Shown here piece after piece: positions 1 to 59,677 of a stretch of DNA of 64,000 nt. The stretch covers positions 1,548 to 65,547 of the forward strand of contig DATDXI010000066.1 of assembly GCA_035289385.1 (NCBI GenBank). The letters run 5' to 3'. Source of the stretch: Candidatus Nanoarchaeia archaeon. Lineage in GTDB: Archaea > Nanobdellota > Nanobdellia > Woesearchaeales > GW2011-AR9. Numbering within the stretch: position 1 is the stretch's first letter; every line of letters begins with the position of its first letter. The notes under the pieces were generated by a model, which was given only the letters and a program-made list of their open reading frames with translations, made no database searches and had not been told where the DNA came from. The position numbers and the translations under genes were made by a program.

Positions 1-539
1 ACAACAGGCTTGTCCAGATTGCCGGAAACTTACCGATCCAACAGGCTTTTGCTGTAGCAAACGAGTTAGTTGCCACGATGATCAAGGGGATTGTAGAGAC
101 CATCGCTGTACCTAGCTTGGTAAACCTGGACTATGCTGACGTTAAGGCAATCATGTCCAATGGCGGAGTAGCTGCTATCGGTGTTGGTTCAAGTGATACC
201 AATAATAGAGTAGAAGAAGCGGTTAAAGGAGCTTTATCTAATCCACTATTGGATATCAGCTATGAAGGCTCAACAGGTGCTTTGATCCACATTACTGGCG
301 GTCCAGATATGACGCTGGATGAAGTATCGAAGATCGGTGAATTGGTTACCGAGAGCCTGCATGATGACGCGAACGTTATCTGGGGAGCAAGAGTTTCCGA
401 TGAGATGAAAGGAAAGTTGACGGTTATGACCATCATAACTGGGGTAAACTCACCTTGGATCCTTGGAAAAGTTGACCAGAAACATGCTCAGCATAAGGCT
501 CGGGTCTTGAGCCAAGAGTTGGGAATAGAATTAGTCTAA
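1..539 (+). CDS. ftsZ: Cell division GTPase FtsZ, C-terminal part; the gene starts upstream of the window and reads in frame from nt 3
   Basis: The translation from nt 3 (NRLVQIAGNLPIQQAFAVANELV...GIVETIAVPSLVNLDYADVKAIM...GGPDMTLDEVSKIGELV) matches the FtsZ T7-loop and C-terminal domain (LINVDFADV motif). The reading frame is open back to the window edge. Confidence 0.8.
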   Translation, partial: NRLVQIAGNLPIQQAFAVANELVATMIKGIVETIAVPSLVNLDYADVKAIMSNGGVAAIGVGSSDTNNRVEEAVKGALSNPLLDISYEGSTGALIHITGGPDMTLDEVSKIGELVTESLHDDANVIWGARVSDEMKGKLTVMTIITGVNSPWILGKVDQKHAQHKARVLSQELGIELV

Positions 540-4067: not shown

Positions 4068-5513
4068 ATGTCACAGAAGGACAATAAGGGGATAACCGTC
4101 AAGAAAGTGGATGATTTCTCTGAATGGTACACACAAGTTCTGCAGAAAGCAGAGCTGATCGATTATTCTCCTGTTTCTGGATGTTATATCTTAAGGCCTA
4201 GCGCTTACCACATCTGGGAGAATGTGCAGCAATTCTTTGACAAGCTGATCAAGGCTGATGGAGTGAAAAATGCCTATTTCCCGTTATTTATCCCTGAAAA
4301 TCTATTGACAAAAGAAAAACAGCACGTGGAAGGCTTTGCCCCAGAAGTAGCTTGGGTCACTCACGGTGGTAATACAGCATTGCAAGAACGATTAGCTGTC
4401 CGCCCTACCTCTGAAACGATCATGTATGACTCTTATGCCAAATGGATAAGGTCACACAAAGATTTGCCGTTACGCCTAAACCAATGGTGTAATGTGGTGA
4501 GATGGGAATTCAATCATCCCGTTCCTTTTCTGAGAAGCAGAGAATTTCTCTGGCAGGAAGGTCATACTTGTTTTGCCACACCGGAAGAAGCTCATGCTGA
4601 AGCAGAGAAGATATTAGGTTTCTACGAGCAAGTCTTTAGGGAATTGTATGCTATCCCTGTGTTAAAAGGTAAAAAATCCAATCAAGAAAAGTTTGCCGGG
4701 GCAGATTATACTTTGTCGGTAGAAGCATTCCTCCCTAACGGAAAAGCTATTCAAGGAGCAACATCCCATCACCTTGGCCAGAATTTCTCTAAAGCATTCA
4801 ATATCTCGTTTACCGATTCTCAAGGAAAAACAAGTTATGCTTACCAGAACTCTTGGGGTATCTCTACAAGGTCCATAGGAATAATGATTCTGATGCATGG
4901 GGATGATAAGGGTTTAGTGATTCCTCCAAGAATTGCCGAGAAGCAAGTGGTTATTGTTCCAATTTTATTTGATGACTCCAAGAAGAAAGTTCTGTCGGAA
5001 GTTCAAAAGATCAAAGATCATCTAGAAAAGCAAGGTCTTCGAGTTCATGTTGATGACCGCGAAGATTATTCTCCCGGCTGGAAGTTTAATGAGTGGGAAG
5101 TGAAAGGTGTTCCTATTAGAATTGAACTAGGTCCGAAAGATCTGGAGAAGAAGCAGGCTGTTGCTGTCCGAAGAGATACAGGAGAGAAGAAAGCGATTAG
5201 TCTTGCCAAGATCAGCAAGGATGTTCCATCTCTGCTGGATACTATCCAGAATGATCTGTTGCAAAAAGCAGAGAAGTTTTTGAAGAGTTCTATCGTTTCT
5301 GTTTCAACAGGAAAAGAAGCAGAGCTGGCATTCAAGCAGGGGAAACTTGTTTCTGCTTCATGGTGTGGTTCAAAAGAATGTGAAGAGTCGGTGAAGGAAA
5401 AGACTGGGGCAAAATCACTGAACAGCCCGCTGCTCCATGGAAAAGTTTCTGGAAATTGTTTTGCCTGCAAGAAGAAGGCTGTGGCACCGTTTTATCTTGG
5501 GAAGAGTTATTGA
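4068..5513 (+). CDS. proS: Prolyl-tRNA synthetase, archaeal/eukaryotic type
   Basis: Class II aaRS catalytic core (motifs around [60 protein letters not shown]) with the C-terminal zinc-binding domain characteristic of archaeal ProRS. Confidence 0.9.
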   Translation: [481 protein letters not shown]

Positions 5514-5538
5514 TTGTGGTCGGTGTTTATTCTTCTAC

Positions 5539-6513
5539 CTATTCTAATTCCCATTCTATGGCATTGGGCCAATACATCACTCCTTGAGCTCCCCACTCTG
5601 AATGATATGGATCTGCACCAAAAGCAAGATCACGAACAGTTTGCTGGCCATTGGCAATACTATCCTGGATATTGTCCTCAAGGGCAGTGATATTAAAATT
5701 AGCGGTTTCATAAGGTCCTCCCACACTTTCTGTACTTAAAATGCCGTGTACACTGACCAACTTTGTTTCTCCTTCTTCATCTAAGAGATGATTTGCATTG
5801 ACCTGAATTTCAGTTCCTTGCTCAGGGTTTCGCCAATAGGCGGCATGTCTCGCATAGCGGATCGCGCCTGCGGACATTTCCCGCCAGTCGTCGAAGTTAC
5901 AAGATAGGTGTTCAAGCGGAAAATTGGAAAAATAGATAGCATTTCCTGAAAAATCTCTCACATCAGATAAATTTCCCTCTTCCAGATATCTTTGTACCTG
6001 CTCTAGGTGATTGCCAGGGACGACTAAAAGGTCAGCATGATAACTTGGGCCTTCAGCGATCACTTCGTTCTGTTCTCCAAGTAACACATTGTTTTGTTGT
6101 CTATAATGTGCCAAAGCAGTTGCTTCCAGACTTCCACCGCCATTCAGGATATCAATTAAAGATACTTCACTTTGCAGACGTTCTGCCAATTGGGTTCCCA
6201 ATGTTTCGGCAGCGGTCACGAAATTACTGTAGCTTTCAGGACATTCCCCTGTGGAACGATCTTCTGGACAGAGGGCACGCAGCCGCTCAGCGGACTTCCC
6301 AAAAAATCCTAAACAGTCTTTAAGGGTGGAATTGACGCTCATCTGGGGATGGTTTAAGGGAGTGGGCGTGGAGATTTGGCGGTCGGAAGGTTGAGGGGCC
6401 GGGGCACTTGTCTCGGGCAAAGGAGGCGCATCATAACGATATAATTTGTCGTCACCACAGACGGCCAGGGCTAGGCCGATGAGTCCGACGTATATTTTGG
6501 TTCGAAGAGTCAT
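5539..6513 (-). CDS. Secreted or membrane-anchored hypothetical protein
   Basis: N-terminal hydrophobic segment (IYVGLIGLALAVCG) followed by a proline-rich linker. No catalytic motif recognised. Confidence 0.45.
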   Translation of the reverse strand: MTLRTKIYVGLIGLALAVCGDDKLYRYDAPPLPETSAPAPQPSDRQISTPTPLNHPQMSVNSTLKDCLGFFGKSAERLRALCPEDRSTGECPESYSNFVTAAETLGTQLAERLQSEVSLIDILNGGGSLEATALAHYRQQNNVLLGEQNEVIAEGPSYHADLLVVPGNHLEQVQRYLEEGNLSDVRDFSGNAIYFSNFPLEHLSCNFDDWREMSAGAIRYARHAAYWRNPEQGTEIQVNANHLLDEEGETKLVSVHGILSTESVGGPYETANFNITALEDNIQDSIANGQQTVRDLAFGADPYHSEWGAQGVMYWPNAIEWELE

Positions 6514-13368: not shown

Positions 13369-15375
13369 ATGATCGAAATCATTGCCATGGTTGTTAGTTT
13401 ATTAGCGTTAGCATACGCAGGTTATCTTTCTTGGACCATTTTAAAGGTAGAAACAGGTACTGAAAAGATGCAGGAAATCGCTGCAGCGATCAAGGAAGGG
13501 GCGATGGCGTTCATGGCCAGGCAATACAAAACGATCGCTATTTTTGCCGTGATCATTGCTGTCATCTTAGCCGTATTATTCCCTTGGCAGGTGGCTGCTG
13601 GATTTATCATCGGAGCGCTGCTCTCTGCGGCATCAGGATTTATCGGAATGAGCATCTCTGTTCGCGCAAATGTAAGAACGGCTCACATTGCCCGGAAAGG
13701 ATTGGCTGAAGCATTATCATTAGCATTCAAAGGCGGTTCTGTAACAGGAATGGCCGTTGTCGGTTTGGCTTTGCTTGCCGTAAGTGTTTCTTATGCTCTA
13801 TTTGATAAGAATCCTGCATTATTAGTTGGCCTAGGCTTTGGTGCTTCGTTAATATCTCTCTTTGCCAGAGTCGGTGGTGGCATTTACACCAAAGCTGCTG
13901 ACGTAGGCGCAGATCTTGTTGGTAAAGTAGAAGCTGGAATTCCTGAAGATGATCCTCGAAATCCGGCAACAATTGCAGATAATGTAGGAGATAACGTAGG
14001 AGATTGCGCGGGAATGGGTGCAGATTTATATGAAACGTATGTTGTTACCTTATTAGCGGCGATGCTTCTTGCTTTATTGCCTTCTGTTTCTTCAGCTTAC
14101 AACCAAGCGGTCGAATTTCCGTTGATGTTAGGTGCAGTGGCTATCATCAGTTCCATCATCGGCACGTTTTTTGTACGGCTAGGAAAGTCACAGAATATTA
14201 TGGCAGCATTGTATAAAGGCCTGATTGCTGCAGGAATCATTTCTGCTGCTGGTTTTCTGGCGGTAACTCTTTACACCAACAATCCTCTGAACCTTTTTTA
14301 TGCTACGCTTGTCGGATTATTTGTGACGTTAGGAATAAATGTCGTTACGGAATATTATACTAGCACAAAATATAAACCTGTCCAAAAGATTGCGGAAAGT
14401 TCGGTAACTGGAGCGGGGACAAACTTGATTTCCGGCTTAGCTTTCGGTTTACAGTCTACCATCATTCCTGTCCTTCTCATCTGTGCAGGTATTCTGGTAT
14501 CTTACTGGTTAGCGGGGATTTATGGAGTAGCTATTGCTGCCGTAGCCATGCTTTCTCTGACAGGCATGATCATCGCTTTAGATAGTTATGGGCCTATTAC
14601 CGATAATGCTGGGGGAATCGCAGAGATGTCTGATCTTCCTCATGATGTGCGAAAGACAACTGATGCGTTGGATGCGGTAGGAAATACGACGAAAGCAGTC
14701 ACAAAAGGATATGCTATCGGCTCTGCTGCCTTAGCTGCCTTAGCTTTATTTGCTGCCTTTATCCATGAAATTAATCTTGATGGGATGGCTGAACAGTTTA
14801 CCTTTTTGATTACTGATCCAGTAGTATTAATAGGATTGTTCATCGGCAGTTTGCTGCCGTTTGCCTTCTCTTCCCTCTGCATGACGGCAGTAGGAAGCGC
14901 TGCTCATGAGATAGTGGTAGAAGTACGGCGCCAGTTTAAGGAAATTAAGGGTTTGATGCAAGGCAAGGCAAAACCAGAATATGGGAAGTGTGTAGATATC
15001 GTCACTAAAGCAGCATTGCATCACATGATCTTGCCGGCTGTTATTGCCGTAGTTGCTCCTTTAGCTGTGGGTATGCTGCTGGGGATCAAAGCTCTAGGTG
15101 GCTTGCTCATTGGAGTTATTCTGTCAGGATTGTTATTGGCGCTGTTCATGTCCAATACGGGTGCTGCCTGGGATAATGCCAAGAAGTATATCGAGCAAGG
15201 CAATTTTGGCGGAAAAGGATCAGATGCGCATAAGGCAGCTGTTGTTGGGGATACGGTAGGGGATCCGTTCAAAGATACGGCCGGGCCAGCTCTGAATGCG
15301 CTGATCAAAGTTATCAATACCTTAGCTATCGTCTTTGCACCATTGTTTGTGGCGTATGGGCTGAGGTTGTTTTGA
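13369..15375 (+). CDS. hppA: Membrane-bound H+(or Na+)-translocating pyrophosphatase
   Basis: Multiple TM helices with H+-PPase signatures ([65 protein letters not shown]). Confidence 0.9.
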
Positions 15376-18330: not shown

Positions 18331-19398
18331 ATGAAAAAAGTTAATCCAAAAGTATTCTCAAAATCCCGGACAGATTTAGCTGGAGATATATTGTGTAATT
18401 CCCAGAGTTCAGAAGAGGAAAAAGATGAGGCTTTAGAGATATTGAGCAACTGGAGAGGTGCACATAGCTATCCCCTGCATGTTTTTAAACAGCGATTAAA
18501 AAATGTTTCTGAAAAAATAGATCCCTCTGCATTATCAGCACAGCGACTAAAACGTGTCCCTTCTATTATAAAGAAGCTTAACCGGGAATATGGCGGTAAA
18601 AAAGCCACGATGAAATTAACTCAAATGCAAGATATTGCTGGATGTAGGGCCGTTATGTCTAATGTATCATTGGCAAAAAAACTATATTTAGATCATTACA
18701 TAAAGGGTGATATAAAACATAAACGGGTAAATGAAAAAGATTATATCACTCATCCTAAGAAAGACGGGTATAGAAGTATTCATTTAATTTATAGATATCA
18801 TAGTGATAAAAAAGGAAGAATTAATTTCAATGGGTTATTGATTGAAGTCCAGATTAGATCTAAGTTGCAGCATATATGGGCTACAGCAATTGAAACTGTT
18901 GATTTTTTTACAAGACAAGCGATAAAATCAAATCAAGGTCAAGAAGATTGGGCAGATTTTTTTAGATTGGTAAGTTCTGCATTTGCTAAGTTTGAGGGGT
19001 GTCCAACAATACCAGAAACACCAACAGATGAAGAAGAACTCTACAAAATGATTAAGCAAAAAGAGATGGAGCTTCAGGTTAGAATAAAGATGAATCGTTG
19101 GGCAAAATCACTCAAGCTTTTTGATAATTTAAAAAATAAAAAGAATTTTCACTTTTTTCTATTGGAATTAGATACCATTCAAGAAAAACTAACTATCTCT
19201 GCATACTCCAAAAGACAAGAGCAAAAAGCTATCTTCGATTATGCAGCGGCTGAGAAAAAGATTTATGGCAGGGGAGAGTATGATGTTGTTCTAGTAGGTG
19301 CAGATACTGTTAAAGATTTGAAAAAAGCTTATCCCAATTACTTTCTTGATACTAAAGAATTCCTAATTAATCTTAATAAAGTTCTCAATAAACATTGA
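18331..19398 (+). CDS. RelA/SpoT-domain protein (small alarmone synthetase / toxSAS-like nucleotide pyrophosphokinase)
   Basis: Synthetase-domain signatures: MQDIAGCRAVMSNVSLAKKLY, KKDGYRSIHLIYRYHSD and LIEVQIRSKLQHIWATAIE, equivalent to the DIAG.R, GYRSLH and EVQIRT..QH.WA motifs of RelA/SpoT synthetase domains. The protein has about 155 extra C-terminal residues and no hydrolase domain. Confidence 0.75.
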   Translation: MKKVNPKVFSKSRTDLAGDILCNSQSSEEEKDEALEILSNWRGAHSYPLHVFKQRLKNVSEKIDPSALSAQRLKRVPSIIKKLNREYGGKKATMKLTQMQDIAGCRAVMSNVSLAKKLYLDHYIKGDIKHKRVNEKDYITHPKKDGYRSIHLIYRYHSDKKGRINFNGLLIEVQIRSKLQHIWATAIETVDFFTRQAIKSNQGQEDWADFFRLVSSAFAKFEGCPTIPETPTDEEELYKMIKQKEMELQVRIKMNRWAKSLKLFDNLKNKKNFHFFLLELDTIQEKLTISAYSKRQEQKAIFDYAAAEKKIYGRGEYDVVLVGADTVKDLKKAYPNYFLDTKEFLINLNKVLNKH

Positions 19399-33989: not shown

Positions 33990-34173
33990 GTACGTATTTA
34001 GTTCAATAAAGAAAATAGTGGCAGGTCGGAAAATCTAGCCTGACTTTCTTGATAAGCAATGATTGAGCTTTGATTTTAAGCTAAAAGTCAGGCAACTAAA
34101 CAGGTCTTACGAAGCTCTCAATATATTTTCCCTCTTGACCTTGCCACTATTTTTAACCGAACTAAATACGTAC
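33990..34173. mobile_element. MITE-like element copy A (184 bp) with 15-bp TIR GTACGTATTTAGTTC and candidate 8-bp TSD GGTTTGGA
   Basis: The left end is GTACGTATTTAGTTCAATAAAGAAAATAGTGGCAGGTC. The right end is GACCTTGCCACTATTTTTAACCGAACTAAATACGTAC, which is its reverse complement apart from a few mismatches. The flanking GGTTTGGA occurs at 33982-33989 and 34174-34181. The interior contains the inverted repeat AGCCTGACTTT/AAAGTCAGGC. Confidence 0.6.
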
Positions 34174-35172: not shown

Positions 35173-36132
35173 TCATTCTGCTGTTGCTCTGCTTTTCAGC
35201 CGAATCTTATTCGTATTCCCGTAAGGAACTTTTTCGATGATGCCTTTAGCTTCCAGATTCCTCAATTTTCGGGATAATTTTACTTTGGAAATGCCTGTAT
35301 GCAGAACTAACTGTTTCTGCCAAAGTTCTCCTTTCTGCAAGAGGACTTCAACAATCGCTTTCTCTTCTTCAAATAGATTTCTGGTGACGTCAGAAACATT
35401 TGGAGCGTCTTTTTTCTGGTGGCGATATTCTTTTTTATCTTCATCCTCTTTATCTTTTGTATTGTCTTTATCGTCCGCTTTTCTTTTTTTTCGTTTACCA
35501 GTAAGATAAAAAATTCCCAGAATGATGATACCCACAGCCATCATTATTCCGATCGTTTTCCAATACTCGCCGATCTCTCTTGGCGTGTTGTAAATGACTA
35601 ACAATGCCTCGCCAGCAGATACGTTCTGCCACTCTATCGACAATGATTTTCCGTCCGTGGTTATTTCTCCATGAGGAATGACCGAGCGCTGGGGAGAATT
35701 TGTACTGTATTTCAATGTTGCAGATTCAGGAAGGTGAGCAGTGATGGTATTCTCTCGCGTATTGACGTTATAATTTACGATGAAAAAAGAATCTTTTGTT
35801 TTCTCTACATATGCCTTGGTGATATATTTTATGCTGACAGTATTAAATAATGGCCCGGAGATGATGACGTTCTTATATAGATTGAGGTCAATCACTTGGA
35901 ATTCTAAACCATTTACTTCGATGGCAGTGGCATCACTTGGTAGAACTAATGTTAATTCAGAGGTGAAATAGCCTAAGTCATACTTTTCCTCAACGATGAC
36001 TTTATCTGCAACGATAGTATATTCAGCGCTGTAGCTTTCTGCATCAAGGCTGAGAACACTTGGTGATAATATAATCAGCAGGATGATAACGAGAGGCAGC
36101 CTTCTATCCATGATTCTTCTTAAGAGTGACAA
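35173..36132 (-). CDS. Membrane-anchored transcriptional regulator: extracytoplasmic domain, one TM helix, cytoplasmic winged-helix (MarR/TrmB-like) domain
   Basis: Signal/TM at the N-terminus, TM helix IGIMMAVGIIILGIFYLTG, a K/D/E-rich linker, then LFEEEKAIVEVLLQKGELWQKQLVLHTGISKVKLSRKLRNLEAKGIIEKV (wHTH). Confidence 0.5.
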   Translation of the reverse strand: MSLLRRIMDRRLPLVIILLIILSPSVLSLDAESYSAEYTIVADKVIVEEKYDLGYFTSELTLVLPSDATAIEVNGLEFQVIDLNLYKNVIISGPLFNTVSIKYITKAYVEKTKDSFFIVNYNVNTRENTITAHLPESATLKYSTNSPQRSVIPHGEITTDGKSLSIEWQNVSAGEALLVIYNTPREIGEYWKTIGIMMAVGIIILGIFYLTGKRKKRKADDKDNTKDKEDEDKKEYRHQKKDAPNVSDVTRNLFEEEKAIVEVLLQKGELWQKQLVLHTGISKVKLSRKLRNLEAKGIIEKVPYGNTNKIRLKSRATAE

Positions 36133-36163: not shown

Positions 36164-36754
36164 TCAAGCATCTTTGCTCTTGCTGATCTCTTCTTCAACA
36201 CTCTTCCGCACATCTTCTTCTGTAGGGAAAGCTTGTTCAGGATCGTTATAAGAGCGCAGCAGCATCTTTATTTTAGCTGTCAAATAAGCAGCATCTTCCA
36301 CCGCTTCGTTACGATAGCTTGCTTCTTGAGGAAAGACATACAGCAGCTTATTGATCGCTCCTTTCAAGAAAAAGATCACAGGACTCATGCCCCAACGGCC
36401 TTCCCATTCAGTCATAAACCAGGCATCCATAAAAATAAAAACATCTCCTTGCTGGAAGCGTTTTGGTCCTCCTGGAACTTGCCGGACAACATTTTTGACA
36501 TTTTTGAAATGGATCCTCAGCTTGATCATCAAGGTAACATAATTGGTTTTTTCCTTGTAGGGGCGCAGCTCGACGTAAACATCATACCCCTCATCAGTAA
36601 CTGTATCTTCTGCTCTCTTCTCGCGCTTATGGTATTTTTTATCCTGAAGAGCTTTGTTGATTAAGTGAAACACTTCCTCGATGACAAAGTAGCCGTGATG
36701 CTCGATCTCTCGGTTATTGACAACCAGATTTCGCTCATAGTGGGTTTCTAGCAT
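36164..36754 (-). CDS. Hypothetical protein, paralog of 36765-37277
   Basis: Shared blocks with the neighbour (ELRPYKEK vs IFRPWKSV; DAWFMTEWEGRWGMSPVIFFL vs DGYVLADRNNQWTKKPFTWFF). Confidence 0.45.
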   Translation of the reverse strand: MLETHYERNLVVNNREIEHHGYFVIEEVFHLINKALQDKKYHKREKRAEDTVTDEGYDVYVELRPYKEKTNYVTLMIKLRIHFKNVKNVVRQVPGGPKRFQQGDVFIFMDAWFMTEWEGRWGMSPVIFFLKGAINKLLYVFPQEASYRNEAVEDAAYLTAKIKMLLRSYNDPEQAFPTEEDVRKSVEEEISKSKDA

Positions 36755-36764
36755 TGTGCTTTCC

Positions 36765-37277
36765 TCAGGATTGGTAGGTGTACTTGAATGTATTGAGATA
36801 TGTTTTCAGCCGGCTATGGAGATCTTCCACATCTCCGGTGATCCAAGCTTCCATCTTCTGGTAATGGTCTTTGAAAAAATATTTATGGGCAACAATAGTA
36901 AAGAACCAGGTGAAGGGCTTCTTTGTCCATTGGTTATTCCTATCTGCCAAGACATAGCCGTCAAACAAGATGGTCAATTTGCCTTGGTTTAATCGTAACG
37001 TTTGCCCGTCATGCTCTACTTCCACATCTTTAACATCGATCATATTTACTTTAATGTGCATGATGATCTTATAATAGTCAGAAACACTTTTCCAGGGACG
37101 GAAGATCTGATGGATCTGCTTTCCTTCCGGGGTGACTCGCTCCATATTCATCTCTTCGTGCCAGTCCCAGTGCTTGGTGAAGAACCAGGAAGCGATGATG
37201 TTGTAGATCTCCGCAGCATTAAATAAGCCTTCATATCCCAGCTTCAAGTGGTCAACGACGAGGAATTTTTCGGACAT
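36765..37277 (-). CDS. Hypothetical protein, paralog of 36164-36754
   Basis: See the paralog at 36164-36754. A tandem duplication. Confidence 0.45.
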   Translation of the reverse strand: MSEKFLVVDHLKLGYEGLFNAAEIYNIIASWFFTKHWDWHEEMNMERVTPEGKQIHQIFRPWKSVSDYYKIIMHIKVNMIDVKDVEVEHDGQTLRLNQGKLTILFDGYVLADRNNQWTKKPFTWFFTIVAHKYFFKDHYQKMEAWITGDVEDLHSRLKTYLNTFKYTYQS

Positions 37278-37480
37278 CTTTTATTTCTCCCTTTTTTGCT
37301 GTGTTGTTTTCTCTGTGAATTTTAGTTGTCCCTTTTCTTGGGGATAGAGCTGCTGTTCAAACTTCTTTTTTCCGAAAAATATCCAATATAACGTCAAATT
37401 AGCGATGACTATCAAAAACAAGACTAATGCTGTTTCCATACGGAGAGATAGAGCAGAATTACTTATAAATTATTCGTTAC

Positions 37481-38746
37481 CTACCGGAGAAGGTGTGTTC
37501 TTCGTCCATACGTTTCTAGAATCGTTTTTTCTTGTTCGGGATCCATTTCATAACGGCCTTTCTCTACTTTTCTGACACCTATTCTCTGCATAAATCCAGT
37601 AAATGATCCTAAGGGGATGTCATATGTTGATGTGATTTCTGTGAACGTCCAGACTTTAGCAAGGGTGCCTGATCCGTTTCCTTCTGAAGATACATTATCT
37701 GCTAGGTTATCTGAGGGAGAGTTTTTCACTATTTTTTTTTTCCCCAGACCTAAGCGGTTGATCCTATCGTAAAGGCTCTTTTTGCTAATGCCAAGGCGCT
37801 TGGCGGCCATATTTTTATTCCCTTTGGTATTTGCCAAAGCGGTGAGAATACATGAACGCTCAGTCTCTTTCAAAATGTCGTAGATGGTTCTTTCCTGTCT
37901 TCTTTCGGTTGTTTCTGTAGTTTGAGATAAAGATGTCCAATCATAATTGATGTCCTCTGCCTGAATTTCACCTGCTCCTCGTAGGATGATAGCTCTCTCC
38001 ACGACATTCTCCAAATCTCTTACATTGCCACCCCAGTCATAGAGCTTCAGCTTTTCCTGTGCTGCTGGAGAGATGCCCGTTACTTCTATTCCATGATCCT
38101 GGGCATATCTTTCTATAATATATCTAGCTATCAGGGGGACATCATCAATCCTGGCGCGCAAGGGAGGAAGTTCTAGAGGAAAAGCATTGAGGCGATAAAA
38201 TAGGTCTTGCCGAAAAGTTCCTTTACTCATTTCGTCTTCAAGATTGCGGTTTGTCGCGGCGAGAATTCTTACATTGACAGGAACAGGGGTATTGCTTCCT
38301 ACCGGGAAAACTACGCGCTGCTGAATCACTTGAAGCAGCTTTGCCTGTAAATGGGGGGACATTTCTCCAATTTCATCAAGAAGGATAGTCCCTCCTTCAG
38401 CAGCTTGAAAATATCCCTTGTAGTCTTTTATTGCGCCAGTAAATGATCCTTTAGCGTGACCAAAAAGCTGAGATTCTAAAACTCCTTCCGCAATTCCTGG
38501 ACAATTTACGGTAAAGAATGGTTTTGCTCCACGGCCATTTCTGTTGTTGTAATGAAGAGCAGCAGCAACCAATCCTTTTCCCGTTCCTGTCTCACCGGTA
38601 ATCAAAACGTTGGTTGGCATGTCCACAAGGCGATTGATAAAACCATAGAGTTGCAGCATTTCAGGAGTTTGACCAACAATAGGCCCTTGGCCATGTTCTA
38701 TCATATATCGGCCAGTCTCTGGAGAATAATGTCTTATTTCTGCCAT
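37481..38746 (-). CDS. Sigma-54-interaction-domain AAA+ transcriptional activator (bacterial enhancer-binding-protein type) with Fis-type HTH and ~85-aa C-terminal extension; no N-terminal sensor domain
   Basis: Walker A GETGTGKGLVAAALH, the GAFTGA-equivalent loop GHAKGSFTGAIKD, Walker B GGTILLDEIGEM, an arginine-finger region RILAATNRNLEDEMSKGTFRQDLFYRLN, and an HTH block ILTALANTKGNKNMAAKRLGISKKSLYDRI. Confidence 0.75.
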   Translation of the reverse strand: MAEIRHYSPETGRYMIEHGQGPIVGQTPEMLQLYGFINRLVDMPTNVLITGETGTGKGLVAAALHYNNRNGRGAKPFFTVNCPGIAEGVLESQLFGHAKGSFTGAIKDYKGYFQAAEGGTILLDEIGEMSPHLQAKLLQVIQQRVVFPVGSNTPVPVNVRILAATNRNLEDEMSKGTFRQDLFYRLNAFPLELPPLRARIDDVPLIARYIIERYAQDHGIEVTGISPAAQEKLKLYDWGGNVRDLENVVERAIILRGAGEIQAEDINYDWTSLSQTTETTERRQERTIYDILKETERSCILTALANTKGNKNMAAKRLGISKKSLYDRINRLGLGKKKIVKNSPSDNLADNVSSEGNGSGTLAKVWTFTEITSTYDIPLGSFTGFMQRIGVRKVEKGRYEMDPEQEKTILETYGRRTHLLR

Positions 38747-38790
38747 CTTATAGCTAGAAAATCACTCATTTATAAATGTGATTGCAACAA

Positions 38791-39011
38791 GTATGTATTA
38801 AGTTCTACAACAAAAATAGTGGCAGGTCGGAAAATTCAGCGAGACTTAATGTAAGAAGTAGCTTGATGAGTGATAGTTTAAGCAAATGGTCTCGCAACTA
38901 GCCTTGTTTTACAAAGTTCTTAATGAATTTTCCCTCTTGACGTTGACCTGAGCGAGCAAGAAGCGAGCTCTTGCATTTCAGACCACTATTTTGACCGAAC
39001 TTAATACATAC
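38791..39011. mobile_element. MITE-like element copy B (221 bp) with perfect 15-bp TIR GTATGTATTAAGTTC and 8-bp TSD TGCAACAA
   Basis: The left end GTATGTATTAAGTTC (38791-38805) and the right end GAACTTAATACATAC (38997-39011) are exact reverse complements. TGCAACAA flanks the element at 38783-38790 and 39012-39019. The interior is homologous to copies A and C (AAAATAGTGGCAGGTCGGAAAAT ... GCAACTAGCCTTGTTTTACAAAG ... TTTTCCCTCTTGAC). Confidence 0.65.
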
Positions 39012-39157
39012 TGCAACAATCTTGTCGGAGAAGGAAATGAAGTTTGCATTCTCTTTTCATCACTAAAACATTAAGGATAATCCTACCTATTCTACCACCA
39101 AAAACTTTAATAAGCATTTGGCAATTACTGAGGTAGTATAGGGGGTCGGCATAAAAG

Positions 39158-39793
39158 ATGGTGAAAAACTTTTTCAAAGTTTTACTGAAGAAACTTTCTA
39201 TGAATCCTTTCGCTAAGAAAAGCCATGTTAAGCTAGGTCTCTATGGTCCGCCGAACGGGGGAAAAAGTACCTTAGCCAACCGGATCTGCCAGGACTGGCT
39301 GGGAGAAGAGATGTCCTCCGTTTCTCATGTTGCTCACGAAACGAGAGAAATAACGATCAAAGAGCAAGTGAACATCAAAAATAAGAAGGGCAAAGAATTG
39401 ACCTTTTCTGTCGTTGATACTCCAGGTATAGCTACAAAAATAGATTATGAAGAGTTCCTTAAGAAAGGGCTGAAAAAAGCGGATGCTAAAAAGCGGGCCA
39501 AGGAAGCTACCAAAGGAGTCATTGAATCTATCAAGTGGCTTGATGAGATGGATTCTGTCGTCGTTGTCCTTGATGCTACGAAAGACCCCTATTCCCAAGT
39601 CAATATCACCATCATCGGCAATTTACAGGCAAGAGATATTCCCGTATTGATCGCGGCAAATAAAGTGGATCTAAAAAAAGCAAATATCGAAGCGATCCAG
39701 GCAGCATTTCCCCAATATAAGATTGTGGGCATCTCCGCAAAGTATGGGAAAAACATCGAAGAGTTCTATGAACAGCTATTCCAGCTGAACTAG
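39158..39793 (+). CDS. Small P-loop GTPase (archaeal, TRAFAC class)
   Basis: G1 GLYGPPNGGKST, G3 VVDTPGIA, G4 ANKVDL. The likely start is M15 (MNPFAKK...). Confidence 0.7.
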   Translation: MVKNFFKVLLKKLSMNPFAKKSHVKLGLYGPPNGGKSTLANRICQDWLGEEMSSVSHVAHETREITIKEQVNIKNKKGKELTFSVVDTPGIATKIDYEEFLKKGLKKADAKKRAKEATKGVIESIKWLDEMDSVVVVLDATKDPYSQVNITIIGNLQARDIPVLIAANKVDLKKANIEAIQAAFPQYKIVGISAKYGKNIEEFYEQLFQLN

Positions 39794-39895
39794 AACTATC
39801 CTGCCTTGGCCATAAGAAAAGCTGCTAAAAAGGTGCAAGCGCAAAAACATTTAAAAACATAGAAACTATCCCTCAACCTAAAAAGAAGTGAAACC

Positions 39896-40300
39896 ATGGT
39901 TACTTTCCAATTTATACCGTATCAGGAAGTGGAAAATCTAGGTTCAGCTAAACGTGTCAATAAGCTGCTGAACATCGTCAAGGAAGATAAGATTGTCATC
40001 ATGGAAGGCCGGCTGACCAAGCAAGAAGAGGCAGATCTTATTGAAATAACGATGGAAGAGATTTCTCCCAAATTTAAGGGGATAGAATTAAGTGTTGTTT
40101 ACCCTGACAAGAAAGACCAACGCCCGATGCAGAAGATGAAAGGTGTTTTTGCCAATATGCTTCTGGGAGATAGGATGGGGCTGACCATCATCGGCCCGGC
40201 TTCTGTCGTCAAGAAGATCGAAAACAATCCCGATCGGATTGAGCTGTTTATGAACGAGGGGAACGCTCCTAGATTTAGAAAAAGAAGGCGTAACCATTAA
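39896..40300 (+). CDS. Conserved archaeal small protein (DUF2073-like; assignment tentative)
   Basis: 134 aa, immediately downstream of the GTPase. Confidence 0.35.
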   Translation: MVTFQFIPYQEVENLGSAKRVNKLLNIVKEDKIVIMEGRLTKQEEADLIEITMEEISPKFKGIELSVVYPDKKDQRPMQKMKGVFANMLLGDRMGLTIIGPASVVKKIENNPDRIELFMNEGNAPRFRKRRRNH

Positions 40301-40302
40301 CG

Positions 40303-40698
40303 ATGCCACACCAATGCGTGCGATGCAGTACTCTTTATCCCGATGGCTCACAGGAGATTCTGCGCGGCTGTACTTGTGGAGCAAGATTGTTTTTCTACAT
40401 CAAGAAGAAAGCTCTTGAGGAAGGGAAAGAGCTCATCAACAATTTGACGGATGAAGAGAAAAAGAATATTGAGAAAGATGTTGCAGAGATCGTCAACATC
40501 AAGCAGGAAGATCCTGATGCTCCCGTTATTCTGGATATTGAAGCCATTCGTGTCTTAAAGCCAGGGAAATATGAATTAGACCTAGTTCATCTGTTCAAGA
40601 AAGATCCCTTGATCATCAAGTTAGAGGAAGGGAAATATATCATTGACTTGCCGCAATTATTTAAGAAAGAAGATGATAAGGGCAAGAAAGGGAATTAG
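40303..40698 (+). CDS. Zn-ribbon protein (C4: CVRC...CTCG), DUF2072-like; tentative
   Basis: MPHQCVRCSTLYPDGSQEILRGCTCGARLFFY. Third gene of a GTPase triad. Confidence 0.4.
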   Translation: MPHQCVRCSTLYPDGSQEILRGCTCGARLFFYIKKKALEEGKELINNLTDEEKKNIEKDVAEIVNIKQEDPDAPVILDIEAIRVLKPGKYELDLVHLFKKDPLIIKLEEGKYIIDLPQLFKKEDDKGKKGN

Positions 40699-40739
40699 TC
40701 TTTACTGATTTTTTCGGTTGTTTTTTTTTGCTTCTCTGC

Positions 40740-41252
40740 TCACATCTTGCTTTTCTGTGCTTTATCGGAGATGATGGCAGAATGGCCGGAAGGGTCTTCG
40801 ATGATGATCTTTAATTTCTCCCTGCCAAGAATAACGTTATTTAATTTCTTGATCATGTTTTTTGCTTTTTTCTTTGCTGGCTCTTCATCTTCAGCGTCAG
40901 CGGCAGATTGAATTATCTTTTTTACTCGCTCAATCAACCCTTCAACGTTGGTGATGTATCCTTCGGAGACTGGGCCTGGCTCAATGGTGATAATATGAGG
41001 AATCTTTAATGTCGCTTCTCCCGATTTCACGATCTTGATGCTCATGTCTTCTTCAGCTTCAACTTCAAAGGTATATTTGCAGGGGTCTTTCGTCTCTGCC
41101 GGCTCGACGTCAGATCTTCTATAGCCGCAGCCTTCACATTCTGCGCATAAGACAAAAACTCGGCCAAAGTGAGGGATATCTACTTCTTCTTCTCGTAACG
41201 TCAGCTTCTTCTCTTCACAAAAAGCGCAAGGCTGGTTTTTTATTTCTGCCAT
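40740..41252 (-). CDS. ZPR1-like zinc-finger protein
   Basis: CAFCEEKKLTLREEEVDIPHFGRVFVLCAECEGCGYR shows the ZPR1-type C4 finger with its characteristic IP(H/F)F element. Confidence 0.55.
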   Translation of the reverse strand: MAEIKNQPCAFCEEKKLTLREEEVDIPHFGRVFVLCAECEGCGYRRSDVEPAETKDPCKYTFEVEAEEDMSIKIVKSGEATLKIPHIITIEPGPVSEGYITNVEGLIERVKKIIQSAADAEDEEPAKKKAKNMIKKLNNVILGREKLKIIIEDPSGHSAIISDKAQKSKM

Positions 41253-42311: not shown

Positions 42312-42392
42312 ATGAAGAGAGAAAGAAAAACTCCTTTTATATTTTGTGGGTCAAGGAATCAGACCAAGAATAAAAAAATATTTATTTTTTAT

Positions 42393-42559
42393 AACGAAAA
42401 TAGTGGCAGGTCGTAAAATCCAGCAAGGCTTACTCTGAAAGTGAATGTATTCCCATAAGTTTTAAGTGGAAAGCCTTGCAACTAGACTTGTCTTACGACG
42501 CTTTTAATGGATTTTACCTCTGGACCTTGCCACTATTTTTAACCGAACTAAATACGTAC
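42393..42559. mobile_element. MITE-like element copy C (left end truncated)
   Basis: GAAAATAGTGGCAGGTCGTAAAATCCAGCAAGGCTT ... GGAAAGCCTTGCAACTAGACTTGTCTTACGACG ... TTTTACCTCTGGACCTTGCCACTATTTTTAACCGAACTAAATACGTAC. The right TIR is intact. The outer 15 nt of the left TIR are missing. Confidence 0.55.
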
Positions 42560-42571
42560 ATAATAAAATTA

Positions 42572-42858
42572 TTAGGGGCATGCCCTCGGTCGAATATACT
42601 TGGCTACTGCAGCTGAACCCTAACGGCTTCTCGGACCTGCGCTCCTCTGAACATGGACAGTACAGGTTATGGCTGCTTTCTTCCGAATCTGACCAGATTC
42701 CCAGCATCGCCATCCCAAAGGACAGATCGTCAGCAAAGACGCCAGGACTGCAATAACCCCGTAAACCCTTCCTCAGGCTTCGGCTCCGTGTAAAGTCCGT
42801 TCACGGTGACAACGCAGGACTAGCGCGCCAGCCTAGCTTACCCTAATCTCTAGCTTGA
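42572..42858 (-). ncRNA. ffs: Signal recognition particle RNA (7S/SRP RNA); boundaries approximate
   Basis: GC-rich (about 55%) 290-bp non-coding stretch in a roughly 40% GC genome. The minus strand reads GGUCAGAUUCGGAAGAAAGCAGCCAUAACCUG. This matches the universally conserved SRP RNA helix-8 (domain IV) motif CAGGUCCGGAAGGAAGCAGCC, including the GGAA tetraloop and the AGCAGCC asymmetric loop. The 3' end has a GGGCAUGCCC hairpin. Confidence 0.65.
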
Positions 42859-59270: not shown

Positions 59271-59289
59271 TTCTGATTGAAGAAAAAAA

Positions 59290-59521
59290 GTAGCGGAGGA
59301 TGGATTCCCCCGCCAGTTACCCTAGGCGAGTCGTATGTCTGAGGGATATTCTGCCGAAATCCCTCTTATTGGAAAGGAAATGTCTGCTGTTATTTCCTTC
59401 AATAATTCTGGAGAGTTTAATAAATGAATAATAAAAAATAGCGGAGGATGGATTCCCACGCCAGTTACACTAGGCAAGTCGTATGTCTGAGGGATATTCT
59501 GCTGAAATCCCTCTTATTAGA
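59290..59521. repeat. Two tandem ~85-bp direct repeats, each beginning with a copy of the 3'-terminal 17 nt of the adjacent initiator tRNA gene (att-like)
   Basis: GTAGCGGAGGATGGATTCCCCCGCCAGTTACCCTAGGCGAGTCGTATGTCTGAGGGATATTCTGCCGAAATCCCTCTTATTGG (59290-59373) and TAGCGGAGGATGGATTCCCACGCCAGTTACACTAGGCAAGTCGTATGTCTGAGGGATATTCTGCTGAAATCCCTCTTATTAG (59439-59521). A third GTAGCGGAGGATGGATT copy is the tRNA 3' end itself (59602-59618). Confidence 0.55.
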
Positions 59522-59602
59522 AATACAGAAACTAAATATTTTTAAGAAGAATACCTAGATTTTCAGAAGTATACCATTTTCAGGATGAATAGATAAAAAA
59601 AG

Positions 59603-59677
59603 TAGCGGAGGATGGATTTGAACCATCGATCTCAGGGTTATGAGCCCTGCGGGTACTCCTAGCTTCCCTACTCCGCT
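59603..59677 (-). tRNA. Initiator tRNA-Met (anticodon CAU)
   Basis: The minus-strand sequence reads AGCGGAG-UA-GGGAAGCUAGGAGUACCC-G-CAGGG-CUCAUAA-CCCUG-AGAUC-GAUGG-UUCAAAU-CCAUC-CUCCGCU-A. It has an A1:U72 pair and three consecutive G:C pairs in the anticodon stem, the archaeal/eukaryal initiator hallmarks. There is no encoded CCA. Confidence 0.7.

Follow-up and report, generated by a model that had tools for sequence, protein, structure and literature searches.

The window analyzed here is a stretch of 64,000 nucleotides from a Candidatus Nanoarchaeia archaeon (assembly GCA_035289385.1, contig DATDXI010000066.1, positions 1,548 to 65,547), and the gene in question encodes, on its minus strand, a 421-residue AAA+ protein of the type of bacterial enhancer-binding proteins (bEBPs). 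The protein comprises (i) a short N-terminal motif, (ii) a Sigma54_activat AAA+ core, (iii) an AAA+ lid, (iv) a Fis-type helix-turn-helix (HTH) domain, and (v) an orphan C-terminal tail (Table 1). The gene is best explained as a native, intact member of a family of sensor-less bEBP-type proteins of DPANN archaea (Woesearchaeota/Nanoarchaeia), a family whose ultimate origin is surely bacterial.

A first-pass annotation, made from the letters alone, had described a protein that begins directly with the sigma-54-activator AAA+ module, with Walker A and B motifs and a GSFTGA loop, and continues into a Fis-type HTH and an additional tail of about 85 residues. Each of these elements holds up. The Sigma54_activat hidden Markov model (HMM; PF00158) matches over nearly its full length, the HTH_8 profile (PF02954) covers the predicted Fis-type domain, the loop and Walker motifs are readable in the sequence and its alignment, and the 86 C-terminal residues belong to no known family. 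A sensor domain is absent, with just 22 residues ahead of the AAA+ domain, and the ATPase motifs (Walker A and B, arginine fingers, and sensor II) are all intact. Because the exact GSFTGA variant of the L1 loop is carried by 90 of 182 bacterial relatives, it represents a norm of these proteins and no departure. The NorR, AtoC, NifA, NtrC, and PspF models of NCBIfam match with E values of 1e-58 to 1e-89, each over the AAA+-to-HTH part only and below its equivalog cut-off, and the automatic annotation at NCBI (HLC91095.1) already reads “sigma-54 dependent transcriptional regulator”.

An AlphaFold2 (AF2) model computed from a 48-sequence alignment has a mean predicted local distance difference test (pLDDT) score of 84.6, rising above 90 for residues 1–270 and 290–335. 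Residues 1–22 are predicted to form a β-hairpin packed on the AAA+ domain (pLDDT 93–98), and the HTH_8 region is modeled as helices 288–306, 311–318, and 322–331 (pLDDT 92–97). M1 is favored over M15 as the start codon because the N-terminal motif and the AF2 confidence both cover residues 1–22. The best Foldseek matches of the model are, without exception, AAA+ domains of bEBPs, a type that belongs to the clade with L1 and pre-sensor-I insertions. The model superposes on the AAA+ domains of ZraR, FlrC, FleQ, NtrC1, and PspF with TM-scores of 0.87–0.95, normalized to the target over AAA+-domain-only entries, and root-mean-square deviations (rmsd) of 1.3–2.5 Å.

A bEBP is expected in a bacterial host with a bacterial core RNA polymerase (RNAP), whereas the markers in the window are archaeal, in agreement with the archaeal setting assumed in the first reading. 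They include an Archaea_SRP RNA, an intron-containing tRNA, and the proteins OapB, OapC, ZPR1, Rpb7, S24e, L21e, Rpb4, ELP3, and archease. The identical protein at NCBI, HLC91095.1, is registered under Candidatus Nanoarchaeia archaeon, and the neighboring proteins come from the same metagenome-assembled genome (MAG). The GC content of the gene (43.4%) and of its third codon positions (GC3, 36%) lies inside the range of neighboring genes. An assembly or binning artefact, i.e., a bacterial gene chimerically fused to an archaeal contig, has nothing to recommend it beyond a bacterial-looking annotation, and its probability is vanishingly small. Archaeal genes lie on both sides of the bEBP gene within one contig, and six other family members occur in archaeal contexts on contigs of up to 306 kb. 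Chimerism is ruled out for practical purposes because the gene and its archaeal flanks, as found in the NCBI MAG, recur DNA-identical in three further independent assemblies (ENA ERZ27254763 and ERZ28563625, and Logan SRR3989342).

The family counts about 52 clusters at 50% identity, and its members are about 49% identical to one another. Directly ahead of the AAA+ domain, some 45 of the sequences have in common a motif that reads roughly (F/I)xNYxxPxYxIxxxxGxIIG. The window protein and its nearest relatives in the family, P0003, P0204, P0167, and P0175, form a subclade with the variant [NH][YF]xxExGxYxI. A motif HMM from which this subclade had been excluded scores the window protein above every bacterial sequence, at a modest E value of 0.038. 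In a word-indexed search, the first matches after a cluster of 99% identity lie at 338–379 bits, and the best relatives are sensor-less and have a similar N-terminus. Run exhaustively with HMMER against 1.84 billion representatives, a 6-sequence profile picked up dozens of proteins aligned from residue 1 onward, among them many without a sensor domain. A protein search of species-representative genomes, a set without the source species, returned bacterial bEBPs only, at 45% identity or less.

A neighbor-joining (NJ) tree of the AAA+ core, built without the N-terminal motif, gathers all 38 of 38 motif-bearing sequences inside one 53-member clade among 234 sequences. Twelve of the 15 further clade members carry a C-terminal domain, here designated domain X, that occurs in 0 of 182 bacterial-type sequences; of the other three, P0167 and P0183 show the N-terminal motif by eye. 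Archaeal markers (TFIIB, FtsZ, aEF1a, aEF2, Rpo11, RNA_pol_N, S9, TrmB, and Cdc6) are present in seven of seven inspected family contexts, and the NCBI organism names of family members are, in five of five cases, Woesearchaeota or Nanoarchaeia. Family members are also carried by the MAGs GCA_016187565.1, GCA_964358315.1, GCA_964343705.1, and GCA_900206355.1 and, as MCB9358410.1, by a 712-kb Woesearchaeota contig. Among the viral or proviral contigs searched (IMG/VR, L037–L116) are 80 bEBP-like loci whose proteins have 31–45% identity to that of the window, some being both short and AAA+-only. The DPANN N-terminal motif is found in 0 of nine inspected viral loci, which include every match beginning within about 12 residues of the N-terminus of the window protein. 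P0189/P0295 and P0192, which are different family members, are each recorded on a JGI contig with the same length of 355,075 bp, a hint that two or more family paralogs are present in some DPANN genomes. The literature searched contains no account of the archaeal family, whereas a database auto-annotation exists.

A recent bacterial acquisition was one of the two explanations put forward in the first-pass annotation. It is unsupported because the family is diversified and has an N-terminal motif, and in most members also a C-terminal domain, peculiar to itself, the inspected contexts and available names of its members are archaeal throughout, and the window gene has native GC and GC3 and an archaeal-type TATA box. 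The donor clade is left unplaced by the NJ tree, in which support is weak.

Members of the family differ in what follows the AAA+ domain. Domain X occurs without HTH_8 in one copy in 36 of the 52 members and in two copies in 2, and it accompanies HTH_8, in one or two copies, in another 2. Six members have HTH_8 without domain X, and six, some of them truncated, have neither. Domain X is therefore present in 40 of 52 and HTH_8 in 8 of 52, and the window protein, itself devoid of domain X, belongs to the HTH_8 minority. The two architectures are linked by P0167 and P0175, of the same subclade as the window protein, which have HTH_8 and domain X together; P0173 additionally has an XRE-type HTH_3.

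Domain X is about 175 residues long, is recognizable by the pattern WYxxGVLPI...YLTP...FN...PF...W.P (e.g., residues 297–471 of P0004), and is predicted with a pLDDT of 95.6 as two tandem strand-helix-helix-strand-strand-helix modules. It corresponds to no Pfam family and has no match in the PDB (best TM-score about 0.2). Comparison with BFVD gives partial, weak matches to small phage proteins of the HTH, PrtN-like, and antirepressor kinds, with probabilities of up to 0.89 over 44–78 columns. A metagenome scan for the domain yielded three loci only, too few for neighborhood statistics. The simplest reading of domain X is that of a DNA-binding module, since recognized HTH domains, namely HTH_8 or the HTH_3 of P0173, hold the same position after AAA+ in other members; as such, it may represent a new DNA-binding fold.

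The ATPase motifs are intact across the family. Of the 52 L1 loops, 24 read GAFTGA, 14 read GSFTGA, and the other 14 are near variants; the third position is F or Y in all 52, and the fourth is T in 50. Non-canonical loops, mostly with G5 changed to D, S, or N, are more frequent in the family (14/52) than among bacterial relatives (11/182), with a Fisher p of about 1e-4 that is indicative only, as the sequences are non-independent.

The orphan tail of the window protein has no match in Pfam at E values up to 10, in PDB sequences, or in PHROGs, and a comparison with 5.8 billion proteins gave nothing beyond one identical fragment. Neither hhalign nor hmmsearch relates it to domain X. The AF2 model presents a disordered linker at about residues 340–378 (pLDDT <50), followed by a small module composed of helix 379–388, strands 391–395 and 398–401, and helix 403–413 (pLDDT 57–72). 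In their order, these predicted elements are reminiscent of a single domain-X module or of a small winged HTH, a resemblance and no more.

Table 1. Features of the window discussed in the text (window coordinates; strand given as in the feature lists).
Feature	Residues	Position	Strand	Details and basis
Sensor-less bEBP-type AAA+ gene	1–421	37481..38746	−	421 aa, stop TAG 37481–37483; ORF list, Pfam, NCBIfam
N-terminal family motif RHYSPETGRYMIEHGQGPIVG	1–22	38681..38746	−	Motif sharing, AF2
Sigma54_activat AAA+ core	23–191	38174..38680	−	PF00158, E 1.9e-60, profile 1–167 of 168
Walker A GETGTGKG	51–58	38573–38596	−	Sequence reading, alignment
L1 loop GSFTGA	100–105	38432..38449	−	Sequence reading
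Walker B LLDEIG	122–127	38366–38383	−	Sequence reading, alignment
Arginine-finger region FRQDLFYRL	178–186			Sequence reading, alignment
AAA_lid_14	197–279	37910..38158	−	PF25601, E 8e-21
Sensor II GNVRDLE	240–246			Inside lid; sequence reading, alignment
Fis-type HTH_8	292–331	37754..37873	−	PF02954, E 3.5e-9; AF2 helices
Orphan C-terminal tail	336–421	37484..37741	−	86 aa; matched by no family
Archaeal-type TATA box TTTATAAA		38769..38776	−	22 nt upstream of bEBP ATG; sequence reading
Inverted repeat AATCAC-N12-GTGATT		38760–38783		Flanks bEBP TATA box; sequence reading
MITE-like element		38791..39012	.	14 nt upstream of TATA; BLAST, alignment, repeat family D1
Other MITE-like copies		~33990–34173 and ~42376–42559		BLAST, alignment, repeat family D1
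Promoter TTTATAAG		37462–37469	−	Heads 170-aa/196-aa unit
52-aa transmembrane-peptide ORF		37281–37439	−	Heads 170-aa/196-aa unit
170-aa gene		36765–37277	−	Woesearchaeota-specific paralog
196-aa gene		36164–36754	−	Woesearchaeota-specific paralog
Peptide/170-aa/~200-aa unit		36164–37469	−	Also L031 3050–4561, L033 6001–7106
319-aa gene		35173–36132	−	N-terminal signal/transmembrane segment, second transmembrane helix, C-terminal DUF7343 winged HTH
OapA-like GTPase/OapB/OapC/ZPR1 block		39158–41252		Syntenic with L033 3715–5954
Archaea_SRP RNA		42575–42843		Archaeal marker
91-nt repeat pair		59285–59375 and 59433–59523		93% identical, 148 nt apart
tRNA gene		59603–59677	−	
Bacterial-flavored genes		~18331–19398 and ~13369–15375		Named via Pfam annotations of matching contig L030

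Upstream of the bEBP gene lies the archaeal-type TATA box, and the next transcription unit repeats its geometry exactly, with TTTATAAG placed 22 nt before an ATG at 37439. A TATA box 22 nt from the ATG is typical of leaderless archaeal mRNAs, and this spacing implies that the bEBP transcript would be leaderless. The inverted repeat that flanks the TATA box of the bEBP gene lacks significance as an operator, as it occurs once in the window and is equaled in 17 of 100 shuffles. The copy of a miniature inverted-repeat transposable element (MITE) that the first reading had placed in the promoter region is indeed there and has two more copies in the window. The copies of this MITE-like family measure 184–222 bp and end in terminal inverted repeats of about 37 bp (GTACGTATTTAGTTC...AAAATAGTGGCAGGTC), and the one upstream of the bEBP gene contains a 35-bp internal insertion. 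Two of the copies end about 14 nt upstream of an identical TTTATAAA TATA box, those of the minus-strand bEBP and rpoE/Rpb7 genes.

Downstream, a 53-codon ORF for a transmembrane peptide and two tandem paralogous genes had been proposed, and both proposals stand. The ORF is read here as 52 codons; on contigs L031/L032, a homologous 47-residue peptide (MENGLLLFLLVIGNLTLYWVLYGQKKF...) and a near-identical promoter (CGAATAATTTATAAGTAATT) precede an ortholog of the 170-residue protein, and the gene upstream of the peptide unit is DUF1003, not a bEBP. The 170- and 196-residue proteins are 22% identical (E 2e-15). Peptides of the unit are 47–52 residues long with a single transmembrane segment, and the unit has no Pfam, PHROG, or PADLOC match. 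The family of the 170-residue protein spans 89 clusters at 36–94% identity, with named members from Woesearchaeota, Nanoarchaeota, and Nanoarchaeia, and the protein is probably important in Woesearchaeota because such identity is kept across the 89 clusters. The downstream genes were considered as a regulon, partner, or operon of the bEBP, and this idea was rejected since the unit turns up in other genomes unaccompanied by the regulator; its own promoter and this occurrence identify the peptide/170/196 genes as an independent unit.

On the Woesearchaeota contig L033, the ZPR1-OapC-OapB-GTPase block directly abuts a 170/198 pair with nothing between, while in the window the MITE, the bEBP gene, and the peptide promoter lie between the same two blocks. 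A lineage-specific insertion or relocation thus appears to contain the bEBP gene with its MITE, given that L033 has both blocks joined without the bEBP. The Oap genes are named as origin-associated, and a replication origin may be located near their block. Directly downstream of the 170/196 pair, the 319-residue protein is conserved in L001/L002, has weak Csa3/CasR-like PADLOC matches, and looks like a membrane-anchored transcription factor from its predicted domains. The 91-nt repeat pair lies just upstream of a tRNA gene and has no Rfam match at gathering score. The bacterial-flavored genes of the window encode a RelA/SpoT-domain protein, an H+-pyrophosphatase, and a Fic-domain protein.

The reading we prefer, at about even odds, is that the window protein works as a DNA-tethered, ATP-driven AAA+ ring that remodels a partner other than sigma-54, probably in transcription initiation. 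An archaeal TATA promoter belonging to the gene itself would drive its transcription into a leaderless mRNA, as the sequence geometry suggests, and its product would bind DNA through the Fis-type HTH, possibly also through the small C-terminal module on its flexible linker. Identity of 40–46%, intact catalytic motifs, and fold matches at 1.3–2.5 Å rmsd argue for an ATP-dependent ring assembly like that of NtrC1, PspF, and ZraR, and the conservation of the L1 GSFTGA loops is consistent with a role in gripping and remodeling a protein partner. In bacterial bEBPs, the partner of L1 is region I of sigma-54. Here, speculatively, it would most likely be another component of transcription initiation, such as TFB, TFE, RNAP, or a sigma-like protein, and control without a cis sensor might be exerted through expression level, a trans-acting inhibitor (cf. 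PspA on PspF), or the N-terminal hairpin. That the F/T of the loop and the full ATPase machinery are kept in a family of about 49% identity suggests that L1 still engages something. Repurposing of the domain, the second explanation in the first-pass annotation, is the better of its two options, though inferred rather than shown.

A broader proposal, which we offer tentatively and regard as doubtful in its entirety, is that DPANN bEBP-type rings, tethered by Fis-type, XRE-type, or domain-X modules, remodel an archaeal initiation component or sigma-like factor via GAFTGA. If true, it would mean ATP-dependent, enhancer-type activation in Archaea that is independent of sigma-54, with domain X as a new DNA-binding fold.

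Several observations weigh against these readings, both of membership and of mechanism. The AAA+ core of the window protein is equally close to the family (mean 47.3% identity) and to bacterial bEBPs (46.9%), the bootstrap of the family clade is weak (51/100 under a relaxed criterion), and one bacterial-type response regulator, P0054, falls within that clade. The apparent family membership of the window protein thus depends on the short N-terminal motif together with the host and the topology of the tree. The check for rpoN was a weak test, confined to 64 kb of the source genome and about 170 kb from relatives. No neighbor gene is conserved across the seven family contexts, and no partner candidate emerged from them. 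The tail is invariant, as all four assemblies are DNA-identical, which leaves no variation from which to gauge selection. Finally, the conservation of L1 could stem from a structural or ATPase-coupling role and not from its target.

As an alternative to a remodeling ring, the protein may be a DNA-binding regulator resembling TyrR or Rhodobacter capsulatus NtrC, in which ATP drives oligomerization only; it would repress or recruit at archaeal promoters, e.g., by occluding a TATA box, and GAFTGA would be kept by inertia or for structural reasons. We consider this unlikely, though a contender to be taken seriously, as DNA-binding domains do follow AAA+ in the family, the L1 loop is somewhat relaxed there by the counts given above, and a 6-bp inverted repeat brackets the TATA box of the gene itself, albeit one without statistical support. 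Sigma-54-independent relatives of bEBPs also exist in bacteria. TyrR and R. capsulatus NtrC are of this kind and have lost GAFTGA and/or catalytic residues, and Caulobacter NtrC and VpsR are reported as sigma-54-independent proteins in which the motif, or residues required for sigma-54 binding, have been lost. The archaeal family, by contrast, keeps the Walker B DE, the arginine fingers, sensor II, and the F/T of L1 at about 49% identity, which argues against a regulator that does not remodel. Far less probable is a decaying passenger of horizontal transfer that is functionless in the archaeon: the lineage-specific position next to a MITE and the orphan tail would fit such a history, but the ORF is full-length, its catalytic motifs are all intact, its promoter is archaeal and its composition native, and dozens of equally intact relatives exist in related archaea.

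The protein could instead be a canonical sigma-54 activator whose rpoN-like partner gene was acquired from bacteria along with it. We know of no sigma-54 in DPANN archaea. All bEBP features, L1 included, are intact, and other bacterial-type modules, i.e., sigma-70-like genes and GroEL/ES, are present in Woesearchaeota (PMC8204110). That work by Castelle et al. (2021), which reports the sigma-70-like genes, is silent on sigma-54 and bEBPs. In a 2025 survey (PMC12316311), 380 archaeal proteomes served as the negative control and yielded no sigma-54-specific EBPs; the survey also states that archaea lack sigma factors. No relevant paper in the literature searched joins DPANN with sigma-54. On contig L025, 5 kb upstream of P0175, a 453-residue protein (4877–6238, plus strand) has a Sigma70_r1_2 match (E 4e-9) and may be one of the sigma-70-like proteins of Woesearchaeota; its match is limited to 30 residues of region 1.2, it has no homolog in the window, and a link between the family and sigma-70-like proteins is unsupported on these grounds. 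A bacterial sigma factor needs a bacterial core RNAP, whereas the loci show archaeal RNAP subunits. The RpoN box is absent from the 236 kb of DPANN sequence scanned, window included, and no Sigma54 domain occurs among the called genes of the window and the relatives' loci. Matches to the −24/−12 consensus (TGGCAC-N5-TTGCW, up to two mismatches) number 27 against 28.3 expected, none of them promoter-like in position. Taken together, a canonical activator is improbable.

We would class the window protein as bEBP-type by all its intrinsic features but as an exception by its context, which offers neither a bacterial host nor sigma-54 promoters. To our knowledge, bEBPs and the GAFTGA loop are regarded as a device exclusive to bacteria and specific for sigma-54. 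An archaeal family that keeps the whole motor would mean either that the motor couples to a different target, in which case the family would be a tractable system for probing what a bEBP ring can remodel, or that some DPANN archaea carry unrecognized sigma-54-like machinery. Either outcome would alter the understanding of transcription in DPANN symbionts with their hybrid proteomes. The family also yields a 175-residue domain that is confidently predicted to fold and for which no relatives are known. Taken alone, the window gene is a single member of the family, and NCBI had already annotated it automatically.

Among known systems, PspF and HrpR/HrpS are like the window protein in consisting of AAA+, lid, and C-terminal HTH without a cis sensor and in having an intact GAFTGA-type L1. 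The fold of PspF residues 1–275 matches with a target-normalized TM-score of 0.89 and an rmsd of 2.3 Å, and the NCBIfam pspF models match at E values of 9e-70 and 6e-58, both below their cut-offs. PspF and HrpR/HrpS, however, come from bacteria, depend strictly on sigma-54, and are regulated in trans by PspA or HrpV. Unlike PspF, the window protein is archaeal, has the 22-residue family hairpin and an orphan tail, and has no PspA-like gene nearby.

The AAA+ domains of NtrC1, ZraR, FlrC, and FleQ are 40–46% identical to that of the window protein and superpose, for the best-matching chains, with TM-scores of 0.91–0.95 and rmsd values of 1.3–1.8 Å. They share its Walker, arginine-finger, sensor II, and L1 features and differ in possessing receiver or other N-terminal regulatory domains and in acting on sigma-54 RNAP in bacteria. 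Of all library profiles, the best-scoring one over the stretch from AAA+ to HTH is RtcR_PspF2 CARF_AAA_HTH (PADLOC PDLC01995; E 9e-98), which matches over positions 166–480 of 481; the N-terminal CARF domain of RtcR (profile positions 1–165) is absent from the window protein, and no RtcB/RtcA or CRISPR genes lie nearby. The nearest functional precedent is provided by TyrR, R. capsulatus NtrC, Caulobacter NtrC, and VpsR, which have a bEBP-type AAA+ domain and an HTH and operate without sigma-54. The window protein and most of its family differ from these relatives, as the literature describes them, in keeping GAFTGA and the catalytic residues.

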